64,000 nucleotides of DNA from Octopus vulgaris (taxonomy: Eukaryota). The notes beneath the pieces are model-generated. The model had not been told where the DNA came from, did not search any database, and saw nothing but the letters and a program-made list of their open reading frames with translations. Where the stretch lies: positions 146,072,001-146,136,000 of the forward strand of contig OX597817.1 in the NCBI GenBank assembly GCA_951406725.2, read 5' to 3'. Numbering within the stretch: the first letter of the stretch is position 1; each line of letters opens with the position of its first letter. This document shows positions 49,921 through 56,439 of the stretch, piece after piece. The translations under genes and the position numbers were made by a program.

Positions 49921-51696
49921 TCTTGCCGGGTTTTCTCACGCACATATATATATATATATAGGCGCAGGAGTGGCTGTGTGGTAAGTAGCTTGTTTACTAA
50001 CCACATGGTTCCGGGTTCGGGCAAGTGTCTTCTACTATAGTCTCGGGCCGACCAAAGCCTTGTGAGTGGATTTGGTAGGCGGAAACTGAAAGAAGCCCGT
50101 CGTATATATGTATATATATATATGCGTGTGTGTGTTTGTGCGTCTGTGTTTGTCCCCCTTGCATTGCTTGACAACTGATGCTGGTGTGTTTATGTCCCCG
50201 TTACTTAGCGGTTCGGCAAAAGAGACCGATAGAATAAGTACCAGGCTTACAAAAGAATAAGTCCCGGGGTCGAGTTGCTCGATTAAAGGTGGTGCTCCAG
50301 CATGGCCACAGTCAAATGACTGAAACAAGTAAAAGAGTAATATATATATATATATGCATAGAAATACGCATATCCATACACACACATACATTACATACAC
50401 ACTATATATATATATATATATATGTCCAACCCATGCTAGCATGGAAAGCGGACGCTAAACGATGATGATGATATATATTATATACATATGTCCTCATCAT
50501 TTAACATCCATTGTCTATGCTGGCATGGGTTGGATGGTTTGACTAGGGCTGCACCAGACTCCAGTCTGATTTGGCATGGTTTCTGTGGCTGGGTGCCCTT
50601 TCTAATGCCAACCACTATGAGAGTGTAATGGGTACTTTTTACATGCCACAATTACCATTTCATTTGGCTTGATGGGTCTTCTACTCAAGCACAGCATATT
50701 GCCAAAGGTCTTGGTGGTCATGTCATTGCCTCGATGAGGTTCAACACTAGAAAGGTGTTTTTTACTTAACAACAGCATTATACTCTTACTTTTTTACTTG
50801 TTTCAGTCATTTGACTGTGGCCATGCTGGAGCACTGCCTTAGTCGAGAAAATCGACCCCTTTGTAAGCCTAGTACTTATTCTATCAGTTGCTTTTGCTGA
50901 ACCACTAAGTTACAGGGACGTAAACACACCAGCATCGGTTGTCAAGCAATGTTGGGGGTACAAACACACACACACACATATATATATATACAAGCTTCTT
51001 TCAGTTTCCGCCTACCAAATCCACTCATAAGGCTTTGGTCAGCCCGAGGCTATAGCAGAAGACACTTAACCAAGGTGTCATGCAGTGGGACTGAACCCAG
51101 AACCACGTGGTTGGTAAATAAGCTACTTACCACACAACCACTCCTATGCCTTTTATGTTTCTATAATCTTAACACATATATACATACAAGATTTTCACCA
51201 CAAAATAATCCCTGAATCATGGCTGGCCAGGGTGTTGTGACCTAGCAGTTGATGATTTGAATCCCATCAGTAACAAAACTAATTACCTTTTATTTATGAA
51301 CTAAATAAATTACTGAGACAAAAATTTCTTAACAGTCCAGTCCACTGTACACATCCATGAATCAAAAGCCCTATGATAATCAGGGAGGACTCTCTGGTTG
51401 AAAACGAGATGAGGGTTCCGCAAAGCTGAAATAACCTGCTGAGATGATTTTTTTACAGTGGTCAAATATTTGTACAGTACATTAGCTCGCTCACTCCATC
51501 AAATCGATATTGCACATACAGGTGCAATGTGTGCCACATCAGATGCTGAAGTGAGCATATAGCAACATGAAATGTCTTGGCATGGTTTGACAGGAGCTGG
51601 CCAGGCAGCATGTCTGTTTTAATAATAATAATAATAATAATAATAATTGTGTACAGTGCTCAGGTGCACTACAACTCATCTAAAGTGTATATATAA

Positions 51697-54522
51697 TCAG
51701 GTGAAGTTTCGGCGGATTTCGGAAAGCATGAGGGCCTTAAAAGATGCAGTGTCATGGCAGTCAACAACTGACGCAGGCAGTTTATTCCATGCTTCAGCAA
51801 CTCTGAGCGTGAAAAAATGTTTCCGAAAGTCATGGGAGCTGTATTGTTTTCTGACTTTGTAGGCATGTCCACGTGTGTTAGACACATGGAGATCAAAAAG
51901 GTGTTCAGTGTTGTTGTTGGTGAGGTGGTTGATAACTTTGTGGGTGTTTACCAAGTCCGTCGCCAAACGCCGGAGCTTCAGTGAATCCATGCCCAGGGAA
52001 ACAAGGCACTCAGAATATGGTAGGTGTCTGATGGAGGGTATGCGTTTGGTTGCACGTCTCTGGACAGATTCCAGGAGGTCAATGTTCTGTGCAAGATAGG
52101 GGTTCCAAACTGATGATGCGAATTCCAAGTGTGGTCGTACCATAGCTGTATACAGTTTTAAATAGATGGCTGGAGAGCGGCTAACAAAAGACCTGCTGAG
52201 TGATGCCAAGACACCCTCGGCCTTCCTGACAATCTTAGAGATATGCTTTGACCAACGCAAATCACTGCTGACAGTGATGCCTAGGTCACGCTCGCAAGAG
52301 GATTTCTTGATATCAGTGTTGTGGAGGGAGTATGTGAACGCAGGGTTTTTTCTCCCAAAATGCATGGTGGTACACTTGTCCACAGCCAGTTTCAGTTGCC
52401 AGTCTGTGATCCATTGCTGCATTGTGTCTAGGTCTGATTGCAGGAAAGAGTTGTAGACATCAGGATCTGTCCTCTTGATTTCAAGGTACAGCTTGATGTC
52501 GTCTGCATATTTCAATACTGTGGCATTCCTTAAATTGGCATCTATGTCGTTAATGTATGCCACAAACAAGAGGGGGCCAAGGACAGATCCCTGTGGTACA
52601 CCCGATGACATCTCATATGGTGTAGAGTGCTGTCCTAGAACTGTGACTACCTCCTTTCGGCTGAGGATGAAGGATTTCAACCAGTTAAAAAGGTCATCCC
52701 CCACACCCATTGCAGAGAGTTTCACCATAAGCCTTTTGTGTGGCACAGAGTTGAAAGCCTTAGCAAAGTCAAGGTAGACAACATCCACCCATGAGCCACT
52801 GTCAGTAATCTGAGTAATGTCCTCAAGGAACTCGACAAGCTGGTCACTGCAGCTGGAGTTAGGGACAAATCCATATTGTGAGGGTCGGATGAGACTGTGA
52901 GAGCTCCAGAAGTTCCAGAGTGTTTCTCTGACACACGATTCCATCAGTTTTGCAATACAGCTAGTGAGACTGACTGGGCGATAGTTGACAGGTGATGTGC
53001 GGTCGCCCTTTTTGAACAGAGGAATGACACTGGCAGTTTTCCACTGCTCCGGAGTAGCACCATTGTTGAGACAGTACTGGAAGAAAATAGAAAGCTGGTG
53101 TAAAAGGAAGTGCCTGCCACGTTTGAGAAGCAGGTATGTAACTCCATCGAGACCAGGGGAGGCATAGTTGCGCTTATTTTGAAGGTGACGTCGCAGCATT
53201 GCAGGTGTAAATTCCATAGTTGTTATGGAGTTTGCTGTTAGTGATGGTGAAGATGGTACATTTTGACTTTCAACAGTGAATATGTTTGCATAGCACTCGG
53301 CAATGAGTTCTGCGCATTCCTTGGGGTCGTCAGTGATCTGGTTTGTGTGAGGGTTGTGAAGAGGGCCCACTGGAGAGTGAGGTCTCTGCTTTGAGTGCAC
53401 ATATTTCCAGAAAACCTTGCTGTCAGGATTGGCTGCTATGCACTGTTCAAATTCAAGCACTGCTTTTTTTGTCACTTGCTTGAGATGGTTGGAGGATTTA
53501 TTCCGCTTCTTCCTGTTGGTGTCTGATTTATGCAACCTGTATTCCCGTTCAGCAGTCCGACGTTCCCTCCTGGCAAGTCGGACCGCTGAAGTTTCCCAAA
53601 TTGCCCTTTTGGGGCGGTTCTTCTTTTTTTGTTTACGTGGCACTGATGCTGCACATGCTGCCCATATTGAGTCCAGGATACTCTGGAGTATAGTATTCAC
53701 ATCTCCAGAGTTGTAGAATTCACGCCAGTTTGGGTGCTGTAGTTCAGTGTGGTACAGGTTCCAATCTGCTCTCTTCCAATCGAATGAAGCAGATTGGAGA
53801 TGGTTCAGGTTTTTGTTGCCCGCAAGAGCCAGATTGGCGATGATCATAGCATGATCAGAGTCACCTAGAGGTTCCTCCGTAGTGCAATTGATAACCGCTT
53901 CAGGAGTTGTGGTGAAGAGCAGGTCCAAGGTGTTGTCGCCTCTTGTTGGAGAGGTGACTACTTGTGACCAGTTTGAGTCCAGCACAAGCTCAACAAAATC
54001 GTTTGCACTCTGTGGCCAATGGAAGGTCTCCCAATCGATCTCAGGATGATTGAAATCGCCTGCAATAAACACATAAGTGGCTGTTTTCCTGGCAGCAGCT
54101 CGGAGGACATTGCAAAGCTGTGTGTCCCGATGGTAACTTGGGGGACGATAAACAACGCCAAGCAGGAGTGTTGACATGGTCATACGCACGTCACAGAAAA
54201 AAACTTCTTCTTGTGATTCGTTCAAATCGGCACAAGGAATTACCAAAAAATTTGAACGAACGTAGACCATCACACCACCACCACGGCGGTTAGTGCGGTC
54301 CTTACGGAAGAGGTTGTACCCCGTAATGTTGAAAACCCCATCACAGAGTAAGGAATGCGCCCATGTTTCCGTGACAGTGATGAAGTCAGGGTCAACACTT
54401 CTGACGTAGGCGTTGAACAAATGTATTTTGTTGCATAAACTGCGAGCATTTAAGGACAACAATTTGTACCCTGCTCGCAGTTTATGATGGTGTGTAGAGG
54501 ATGGCAGGTTGTTCTGGCTTAG
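51697..54522 (-). CDS. LINE ORF2: apurinic-like endonuclease + reverse transcriptase (CR1 clade), frame uninterrupted
   Basis: APE motifs LNARSL, VTETW, DR..RRGGGV, VYRPP, GDFNHP, LDL, SDH. RT motifs NYRPVSLTS, YLDFAKAF, GVPQGSVLGP, YADD, DLG. CR1-type C-terminus TRGH...RKHFF..RV...WNKLP. The frame stays open upstream of the track's TTG (54462) to a TAA at 54549-54547, and the first AUG lies inside the endonuclease. Confidence 0.95.
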   Translation of the reverse strand, partial: LSQNNLPSSTHHHKLRAGYKLLSLNARSLCNKIHLFNAYVRSVDPDFITVTETWAHSLLCDGVFNITGYNLFRKDRTNRRGGGVMVYVRSNFLVIPCADLNESQEEVFFCDVRMTMSTLLLGVVYRPPSYHRDTQLCNVLRAAARKTATYVFIAGDFNHPEIDWETFHWPQSANDFVELVLDSNWSQVVTSPTRGDNTLDLLFTTTPEAVINCTTEEPLGDSDHAMIIANLALAGNKNLNHLQSASFDWKRADWNLYHTELQHPNWREFYNSGDVNTILQSILDSIWAACAASVPRKQKKKNRPKRAIWETSAVRLARRERRTAEREYRLHKSDTNRKKRNKSSNHLKQVTKKAVLEFEQCIAANPDSKVFWKYVHSKQRPHSPVGPLHNPHTNQITDDPKECAELIAECYANIFTVESQNVPSSPSLTANSITTMEFTPAMLRRHLQNKRNYASPGLDGVTYLLLKRGRHFLLHQLSIFFQYCLNNGATPEQWKTASVIPLFKKGDRTSPVNYRPVSLTSCIAKLMESCVRETLWNFWSSHSLIRPSQYGFVPNSSCSDQLVEFLEDITQITDSGSWVDVVYLDFAKAFNSVPHKRLMVKLSAMGVGDDLFNWLKSFILSRKEVVTVLGQHSTPYEMSSGVPQGSVLGPLLFVAYINDIDANLRNATVLKYADDIKLYLEIKRTDPDVYNSFLQSDLDTMQQWITDWQLKLAVDKCTTMHFGRKNPAFTYSLHNTDIKKSSCERDLGITVSSDLRWSKHISKIVRKAEGVLASLSRSFVSRSPAIYLKLYTAMVRPHLEFASSVWNPYLAQNIDLLESVQRRATKRIPSIRHLPYSECLVSLGMDSLKLRRLATDLVNTHKVINHLTNNNTEHLFDLHVSNTRGHAYKVRKQYSSHDFRKHFFTLRVAEAWNKLPASVVDCHDTASFKALMLSEIRRNFT

Positions 54523-54528
54523 TTTCCC
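54434..54528 (-). promoter_or_regulatory. Candidate -1 programmed ribosomal frameshift signal (G_GGA_AAC plus downstream RNA structure)
   Basis: ORF1 ends CAG GGA AAC TAA (heptamer 54528-54522), and the ORF2 frame reads TCA GGG AAA CTA, i.e. -1. Perfect 15-bp inverted repeat at 54434-54448 / 54472-54486. Confidence 0.6.
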
Positions 54529-55746
54529 TGAGTTGCTGTAGTTTTTTTAGTTATTGTGGGTAGAGAGCACTCAGACCAGCTGGTATCTCTCTTCCACGTT
54601 TCAGCAGTCTTGACAAATCTCCAGATTTGTCCATCTTCCCGAAGACTGAAGCTTTCCTGTAGAGCTGAGTTCCTATTCAGGGAAGCCACTACACGTAGCT
54701 TTGGGCGTACATCGGACGGTAAGCCTGGGCGTGTTCGGAAGGTGGTCCGATTTTCCCGCCCAGCTTTAACTGAGGCCAGATGGTAAGAGGTTGCCTCAGT
54801 GGGGTCCGTAAAAGACAACTTGATGAGCCTAGGTTTTGGGCCAGGTCGTCCAAGGCGGATAGCACCCGTTGGGGGAACGCAGCCTAGGTCTTTGGCTGAG
54901 TTGGCAGCAAAAGCCTGAAGATTAGCCATGTCTTCTGGCACCCCAATGGCAATGACTTCATGGGTGGCAGAATCCGCGGTCTTAAATGCGACAAGAGGTA
55001 CAGGTACAGGGAGGTTCTTTAGCAGAGCATTCCGATAAGACCCTCATTGTGGAGTCCAACCTGAATGGTTGCTTTTATTCCTGCTACTTCCCCTTTTAAA
55101 GCACAGATCGATTGTTGCAGTTCTGCAAGAACCGCACTGGTCAATTGGTGTTGTTGTTGTTGCTGCTGTTGCTCTGGTTGTGGTTGATTTTGTTGTTGCT
55201 GTTGTTGTTGTTGATGTTGTTGTTGCTGCTGCTCTGGTTGTGGTTGATTTTGTTGTTGCTGCTGCTCTGGTTGTGGTTGATTTTGTTGTTGCTGCTGCTG
55301 CTGCTCTAGTTGTTGCTGCTGCTGTTGTTGTTGCTGTTGTTGTTGCTGCTGCTCTGGTTGTGGTTGATTTTGTTGTTGCTGCTGTTGCTGTTCCGCCTCC
55401 TCCACGGGAGTGGCAGGGGGAGACACAATCGTCGGTTGTGGAGGCACGCAGGCCTGACACTGAAAAGTCCAAGATTTAAGCTGAACCATCTTCCAGAGTC
55501 TATCCATCATAGCATTATGATGGCTCTTTTTTGGCCTGGGATCTTCTGAAAGTCCGTGGCACATTGGAGGCAGACAGAGATGAGACATGTCCCACATTCG
55601 ACCCAGCGATTACGGAACGTATTTTCGGGTTCCGTACAGATGTGGCAGGTGTGATTTTCTGGGCAGTGTTCTATTTTAGAGCAGCGACCAGTCTTATCGC
55701 ACGCCGCTATGGATTTCACCATGGCGATTCTGTTGGTTCTGGTCAT
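54519..55746 (-). CDS. LINE ORF1 (about 409 aa when two 1-nt homopolymer deletions are restored): PHD-like zinc finger, polyQ repeat, coiled coil, RRM/CTD-like region
   Basis: Three track ORFs join up. CHIC...WVECGTC...CLQC (55507..56004) continues into WTFQCQAC after the A6 run at ~55527-55532. After the GAGGG run at ~55041-55045 the frame reads SYRNALL...VIAIGVPE...IRLGRPGPKPRLIKLSF, resembling the xIxGxPE and RLG...PRxIxxxF motifs of CR1/L2/L1 ORF1. ATG at 55746-55744, TAA at 54521-54519. Confidence 0.8.
55146..55391 (-). repeat. CAA/CAG-rich coding tandem repeat (polyQ with four NQPQPE units) inside ORF1
   Basis: Four copies of gctctggttgtggttgattttg on plus, separated by (gtt/gct)n. Confidence 0.9.
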
Positions 55747-55809
55747 CCGTAGAGACAGAAAATGTAAACAACAATACGATAAAAGTAAAATATAAAATAT
55801 TTGTTTTTG

Positions 55810-55925
55810 ATTCGTTCTTTTTTGTGTATATTCCTTGTTCTTAAATATTGCGTGTGTATATACACATGTTTCGTTCTTTTTTGTGTATATTCCTTTTTTT
55901 CTTAAATATTGCGTGTGTATACATA
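55810..55925 (-). repeat. Two-copy ~60-bp tandem repeat in the LINE 5'UTR
   Basis: ttcgttctttttgtgtatattcctt...cttaaatattgcgtgtgtata occurs twice head-to-tail. Confidence 0.85.
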
Positions 55926-56439
55926 AAAGTATTTGTGCGTATAGACACGGAGAAAGTTTGTAAACAAATGAAATTTTTGATTTTTTTGCAGTGTAGTCCG
56001 TCACATTAAATAGTGTGATTTATTTTCACTCTGCACGTATATACATGTGTGCTACAAGTATCTATGTATGTATGTATGTCACTGCTTTATAAATTTTGGA
56101 CGTACTTACTGTCGTTCAACGATTTCTTTTACCCTCAACTACACGTGGTGAATTCTTCCATTGTAGATCTGTGGTGGTCATCATATATCTTCACAAATTA
56201 AAGTTAAGGTATATAACACATACATCCTCTCATCTTTGCTATATGGGAGTGAGGCATGGGTTGTTTACCAGAGGCATGTAAGGCATTAACTGGAAAATGA
56301 CCATTAGTAATCATGGTTTCTACGGCTGGATAGCCTTCCTTATGCCAACCACTTTACAGAATGTACTGGGTGCTTTTACATGGCACTGGTACAGGGAGTC
56401 CAGGATATTTACCCCTGAGAATAACAAATGACAATTTAA

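Follow-up and report, generated by a model that had tools for sequence, protein, structure and literature searches.

A probable −1 frameshift site between the two reading frames of a CR1-group LINE in Octopus vulgaris

How can an endonuclease-reverse transcriptase be translated when its open reading frame (ORF) offers no AUG ahead of the endonuclease motifs? The question is raised by a long interspersed nuclear element (LINE) located in a stretch of 64,000 nucleotides (nt) of the 2.8 Gb Octopus vulgaris genome (assembly GCA_951406725.2, contig OX597817.1, positions 146,072,001 to 146,136,000), referred to here as the window. The element lies on the minus strand, as do all features given below, and spans about 56168 to 51621 of the window. 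ORF1 (54519–55746) ends in CAG GGA AAC TAA, where the slippery heptamer G_GGA_AAC (54522–54528), in register with ORF1, is directly followed by the stop codon (54519–54521). ORF2 (51697–54546) comprises 949 codons from stop to stop, lies in frame −1 and overlaps the last 28 nt of ORF1. A preliminary description of this DNA had proposed that the two frames are joined by a retrovirus-style −1 frameshift with a stem or pseudoknot as stimulator. The slip at G_GGA_AAC passed the comparative tests reported below, whereas the proposed stimulator is not conserved and exhibits no two-sided covariation.

The first methionine of ORF2 is codon 93 (54270), behind the motifs NARS (codon 33) and TETW (codon 59); alignment with the L1 endonuclease places both motifs at its first strands. 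A start at Met93 would thus produce an ORF2 protein without residues 1–92, including NARS and TETW; the asparagine matching that of NARS is required in Zorro3, according to PMC1965478. The absence of an earlier AUG, the exact −1 offset and the in-register heptamer had all been described correctly, and the fusion length of ~1350 residues given earlier is right for an intact copy (1,350 residues). The window copy itself carries single-base deletions in ORF1 near 55533 and 55044 relative to intact copies, which could be mutations or assembly errors; with ORF1 broken in this way, this copy is unable to use the slip site as it stands.

Programmed −1 frameshifting at G_GGA_AAC, yielding the endonuclease-reverse transcriptase as an ORF1-ORF2 fusion, is judged to be the probable answer, with considerable confidence. 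Most ribosomes would terminate at the ORF1 stop codon and release an ORF1 protein of ~410 residues. A minority would slip, with tRNA-Gly on GGA and tRNA-Asn on AAC re-pairing one base back on GGG and AAA, and would continue in the −1 frame to complete the fusion; the adjacent stop codon may aid pausing. From the genomic sequences we infer that ribosomes slip, that a fusion results and that it is made at a low rate. A low shift rate may suffice if one enzyme per RNA is enough, as the cis-preference of LINEs allows. The site has three features of a canonical −1 signal, namely an in-register X_XXY_YYZ heptamer, an open −1 frame behind it and conservation of the heptamer beyond the need of the protein. 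The same heptamer is reportedly in use in PEG10 and SRV-1. It is also named among the most shift-prone heptamers in a passage of PMC5009743.

Conservation of the slip site

The layout of the junction, its conservation and a statistical excess of heptamers are direct observations, obtained at three levels of divergence. A DNA search with the junction gave 361 candidates, of which 40 were scored and 30, the window among them, were fetched. These 30 family A copies are at least 99.5% identical over 451 nt (13 are identical), and family A is therefore very young. The heptamer and stop codon are retained in 29 of the 30, and an unbroken ORF1 of 406–416 residues ending in Gln-Gly-Asn-stop is present in six. 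The frame breaks in ORF1 and ORF2 of these copies (L001–L030) recur at the same places in many near-identical copies and could be sub-lineage mutations or assembly homopolymer errors.

Since selection is not visible in identical copies, diverged relatives were sought. Older family A subfamilies are represented by 19 loci, 18 of which cover the site, mostly at 85–93% identity there with one partial match at 76%. G_GGA_AAC TAA is retained in 18 of 18, despite insertions just upstream in many. The preceding codon is CAG (8), CTG (8), ATG (1) or CGG (1); over all copies it is CAG, CTG, TTG, ATG or CGG, encoding four amino acids and always ending in G.

Family B is 80% identical to family A in ORF2 and 60% in the C-terminus of ORF1, which ends in TTG GGA AAC TAA with the −1 layout of family A. 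Between the two families 15 of 30 positions are identical just upstream, 10 of 10 in the heptamer and stop codon, and 26 of 35 downstream. Among 30 family B copies fetched, 28 carry G_GGA_AAC and one each G_GGA_AAU and G_GGA_AAA, both still of the X_XXY_YYZ form. Ten of the 30 (L067–L074, L079 and L080) share one chimera, an RTE-like LINE stretch joined to a 5'-truncated family B element, and therefore count as one event; most of ORF1 is gone, and an extra G at the slip site places the ORF1 remnant in frame with ORF2. This seems to be a single non-autonomous chimera amplified to many chromosomes.

A metagenomic locus, L081, whose endonuclease is 57% identical, ends its ORF1 in CAG GGA AAC TAG, again with ORF2 at −1. 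The stop codon is TAA in all 77 own-genome copies tallied. Families A and B and L081 form a clade in the tree (support 100/99), and the heptamer, the frame offset and the lack of an early AUG, whose conservation the preliminary description had proposed as a check, are kept in all three diverged families and are general in distant relatives. A further ORF1, known as protein only and 61% identical, ends in Val-Gly-Asn. Searches of the octopus genome with diverged proteins returned families A and B as best matches, with no close copy of the P0003 family among the 20 hits fetched; the metagenome scan with the ORF1 homolog P0033 and the viral scan gave no match.

For distant relatives, the best 80 of 455 metagenomic loci confirmed by an endonuclease alignment search were fetched. 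Fixed rules gave a callable ORF1 in 57 of them (median pairwise identity 37%); the 23 loci dropped comprise 3 single long frames, 15 in which no ORF1 could be called and 5 whose endonuclease start is broken. ORF2 lies at −1 relative to the upstream ORF in 48 of the 57 loci, at +1 in six, and in the same frame behind a stop codon in three. Among the six +1 loci, three resemble −1 copies that have been broken, as shown for L081 and deduced for L098 and L118 from close −1 relatives. In L148, L151 and L159 a long open frame of 212–280 codons extends upstream of the endonuclease, possibly a natural in-frame ORF1-ORF2 fusion.

Collapse at 80% identity left 44 non-redundant −1 loci and 6 others; the 44 form only 11 clusters at 50% identity, and their relatedness means that the counts and p-values given here overstate independence. 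A canonical in-register heptamer occurs in the overlap in 27 of the 44 loci, one per locus, as against 4 and 1 in the other registers, and heptamer density is 3.9 per kb in the overlap versus 0.46 per kb in upstream ORF1. With G_GAA_AAC included, a heptamer added post hoc after the data had been seen, the count rises to 37 of 44, versus 4 and 5 in the other registers. When synonymous codons were redrawn with the ORF1 protein fixed (2,000 runs), the mean was 10.6 loci for canonical heptamers and 11.6 with G_GAA_AAC, and the maximum was 21. The −1 frame is expected to be open only from the shift site on, which would place the site at the 5' edge of the overlap; its median distance from that edge is 12 nt (n = 32, the loci that have a site and whose overlap reaches 60 nt or more; Kolmogorov–Smirnov p = 2e-12). 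An in-frame AUG before the endonuclease is absent from 31 of the 44 −1 loci and present in 5 of the 6 other-frame loci (Fisher p = 0.018). Five heptamer types occur, in separate clades of the tree.

Among the loci without a heptamer, the frame of L128 runs off the contig end. The six loci L086, L091, L113, L120, L122 and L134, which have no canonical heptamer, carry an in-register NCG GGG GA(A/C) 6–12 nt into the overlap. Across the upstream ORF1 sequence of all 44 loci, motifs of this G_GGG_GA type are found in register only three times, and in these six loci the motif could serve as a non-canonical site of frameshifting.

RNA structure downstream of the heptamer

The perfect stem of 15 base pairs (bp) noticed earlier is present (54486–54472 paired with 54448–54434) and begins 36 nt after the heptamer, where ~35 nt had been given (z = −4.29). 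The 4,250-nt element has no longer perfect stem among those with loops of up to 60 nt, and when a 3,400-nt part was shuffled 300 times by mononucleotides, no shuffle contained a stem of 13 bp or more. Its 3' arm (54434–54448) codes for the conserved NARSLC motif. Of 29 family A copies tallied, 28 have the stem without a mismatch. Among 16 older copies scored, one has the perfect stem, ten have 14 pairs and five have 13; the same A.C mismatch is carried by 14 of the 16, and a two-sided change by none. Neither family B nor L081 has the stem. In family B a short stem further downstream, judged by eye, shares its 3' arm, and the hairpins of L081 are unrelated to it. A role as conserved stimulator was rejected, given that the 15-bp stem begins at +36, shows no compensatory change and has no counterpart in these two relatives. 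Although genuine, the stem is thus confined to the family A lineage. An inversion may have produced it neutrally, or it may assist pausing or reinitiation; purely as speculation, it might act as a roadblock at a distance, 36 nt, that would fit a second ribosome waiting in a queue.

The second pairing proposed earlier, between 54515–54508 and 54460–54453 in the loop of the 15-bp stem, also exists. This possible proximal helix forms 7 of 8 pairs in the window, with one A.C mismatch, and all 8 in four family A copies. The minimum-energy fold of family B pairs the same register, which makes the helix the sole candidate structure common to A and B. It is weak, it has no counterpart in L081, and both of its strands encode conserved residues. 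A conserved stem-loop or pseudoknot 5–9 nt downstream of the heptamer was not found in A, B or L081, and an Rfam search gave three chance-level matches and no frameshift element. Of the features that might cause a pause, only the adjacent stop codon is common to the junctions of A, B and L081; their RNA structures differ.

In distant loci the 40-nt stretch behind the site is slightly more stably folded than control windows (mean z −0.75 vs about 0; p = 0.001), with z below −2 in 7 of 37 loci, a weak enrichment. Several members of one clade (L082, L097, L101, L110, L114 and relatives) have a short hairpin with a GUGG loop 6–22 nt after G_GAA_AAC, at the usual spacer distance. Pairing of the 3' tail with the region behind the slip site was considered and not found, the tail ranking 19th of 29 control windows in family A and 14th of 15 in family B. 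In 18 distant loci with a 3' end it ranks first in three, and the longest Watson–Crick helix is 7 bp.

Alternative routes to ORF2

Several of these results weigh against frameshifting as the route to ORF2: the relatedness of the loci, the post hoc status of G_GAA_AAC, the imperfect form of the 15-bp stem in older copies and its absence elsewhere, the want of a conserved structure at 5–9 nt and the weak fold enrichment in distant loci. To these must be added that 7 of the 44 −1 loci have no heptamer, that 13 of the 44 have an in-frame AUG before the endonuclease, and that in L081 an AUG in frame stands at the first strand of the endonuclease. In addition, L1 ORF2 tolerates loss of its AUG and is functional with any sense codon in its place, as stated in PMC1965478; the missing AUG alone therefore proves nothing.

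This tolerance favours termination-reinitiation of the kind described for L1 and SART1, in which ribosomes would stop at the ORF1 UAA and restart at a non-AUG codon in the ORF2 frame, helped by the downstream stem, and release a free ORF2 protein. Near-cognate codons are present in frame (CUG at +15 and +42, UUG at +60 and +63), and the strong stem begins about 18 nt beyond the +15 CUG. Reinitiation in SART1 requires RNA structure past its ORF1 stop (PMC10275272), and the AUG of L081 stands at the endonuclease start. For LINEs with two genes, reviews present the translation of ORF2 as an unconventional form of reinitiation, on the basis of L1 and SART1, and the window element would resemble these two in having a bicistronic RNA on which ORF2 translation depends on that of ORF1 (PMC2881922). 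L1 and SART1 differ from it in having an AUG at the ORF2 start and a free ORF2 protein, whereas in the window element the ORF2 start lacks an AUG, the frames overlap at −1 and the heptamer is conserved. The UAAUG stop-start overlap of SART1 was not seen in the copies either, the stop codon being followed by GCC, CCA or ACC and no AUG. Reinitiation leaves unexplained the conserved in-register heptamer and the fixed −1 offset, as well as relatives with a long overlap, where the heptamer marks its 5' edge, 60–430 nt ahead of the ORF1 stop; moreover, the +15 CUG is replaced by CAG in family B. Reinitiation is therefore considered unlikely, though it is the most serious competitor of frameshifting.

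Far less probable is that the heptamer is a by-product of protein conservation, of Gly-Asn, Lys-Asn or Glu-Asn near the ORF1 end, with ORF2 made in some other way. The site does fall within a conserved ORF1 motif (E-N-Y or K-N-L) in many distant loci, but the redraw with the protein fixed accounts for 10.6 of the 27 loci observed. Moreover, slippery codons are used for 17 of the 24 K-N pairs in overlaps but for 5 of the 68 upstream; for E-N pairs the counts are 12 of 17 and 3 of 67. In the window family the site terminates a variable ORF1 tail. The synonymous-codon test thus largely refutes this explanation. A change of frame in the RNA, through splicing, RNA editing or polymerase slippage, has an equally slim chance of being correct: the window copy has an A7 run immediately before the overlap, but in many copies this run is interrupted, and its position is no later than the last −1 stop. 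Base editing is unable to change the frame, and contigs of four studies, whose RNA status is a guess and which drop rare forms, cross the junction colinearly without joints or indels, three of them in one piece; one of the contigs may come from close to the source of the window DNA.

The element and frameshifting in CR1-group LINEs

The element begins with a 5' untranslated region (55747–56168), the outer end of which is approximate, copies L037 and L050 sharing sequence at least that far. ORF1 comprises a candidate PHD-like finger, a Q-rich repeat and a C-terminal domain. The repeat (55140–55400) is a tandem array rich in CAG and CAA that encodes a long glutamine tract and varies in whole codons between copies, within the 406–416 residues of the intact proteins. 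PHD, RRM and esterase types of ORF1 have been described in the CR1 group. The finger is suggested by its cysteine pattern; the homolog P0033 matches PHD_Pygo/PHD features at 0.90–0.92, and PHD_Pygo is found in 12–21% of members of its atlas neighbours, whereas fragments of the window ORF1 gave no passing Pfam match. ORF2 contains an APE endonuclease (codons 31–236; Pfam PF03372/PF14529) followed by a reverse transcriptase (codons 514–739; PF00078). Its profile matches L1 endonuclease structures with E of about 1e-5, a single-sequence search of the PDB gave chance-level matches only, and no protease or integrase family was matched in the Pfam search of the window proteins. A short 3' untranslated region (51621–51696) ends in nine ATT repeats. 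The (ATT)n tail occurs in the window copy and in 7 of 7 further family A copies, and 5'-truncated copies exist.

CR1-group elements end in a short tandem repeat, are frequently 5'-truncated and have no long terminal repeats. The order of endonuclease and reverse transcriptase in ORF2 and the repeat tail place the window element in this group (CR1/L2); it may be CR1 in the strict sense rather than L2, a label based on C-terminal motifs; the tree covers unnamed relatives only. CR1/L2 LINEs of types IIC and IIIB share with it an APE and reverse transcriptase ORF2 and apparently an N-terminal PHD-like finger in ORF1 (Metcalfe and Casane 2014, main text). The words frameshift and overlap are absent from the main text of that paper and of a 2026 vertebrate survey, the supplements of which could bear on the claim.

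Among known systems, the likeness to retroviral gag-pro and gag-pol sites and to PEG10-type sites lies in the in-register X_XXY_YYZ, the structural protein upstream and the enzyme in the −1 frame. The window element differs from them in lacking a conserved hairpin or pseudoknot at 5–9 nt and in being a non-LTR element with APE and reverse transcriptase. The legend of a review states that a −1 frameshift is required for ORF2 of TRE5-A and TRE3-A of Dictyostelium (PMC5911963); those elements belong to another host kingdom and have another domain layout, with a zinc finger after the reverse transcriptase. For Paramecium elements +1 frameshifting or reinitiation has been suggested (PMC5405496, in part). 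No report of frameshifting in a CR1 element was found in the full-text literature available, a search that extended to open texts and left older CR1 descriptions in subscription journals outside it. Some of these, such as the early accounts of chicken, turtle and Anopheles T1 and Q elements, may have proposed frameshifting, and priority of the idea is therefore uncertain.

The window feature appears to be one instance of a translation strategy that extends across the group, judging from the relatives compared. It is somewhat more probable than its contrary that −1 frameshifting is the default route to ORF2 in two-ORF CR1-group LINEs, with the enzyme born as a Gag-Pol-like fusion to the PHD-like finger of ORF1, the signal having switched among five or more heptamers, some lineages doing without a classical RNA stimulator, and six loci perhaps using G_GGG_GA. 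The prediction is exact in site, direction and product size and is cheap to test, and the window family is probably young enough for the signal to be in current use. If CR1-group elements do frameshift, a very widespread group of LINEs makes its enzyme as an ORF1 fusion. Frameshifting would then set the ratio of ORF1 to ORF2, couple the enzyme with the ORF1 particle and give the endonuclease a finger resembling a chromatin reader, and the annotation of CR1-group elements would change.

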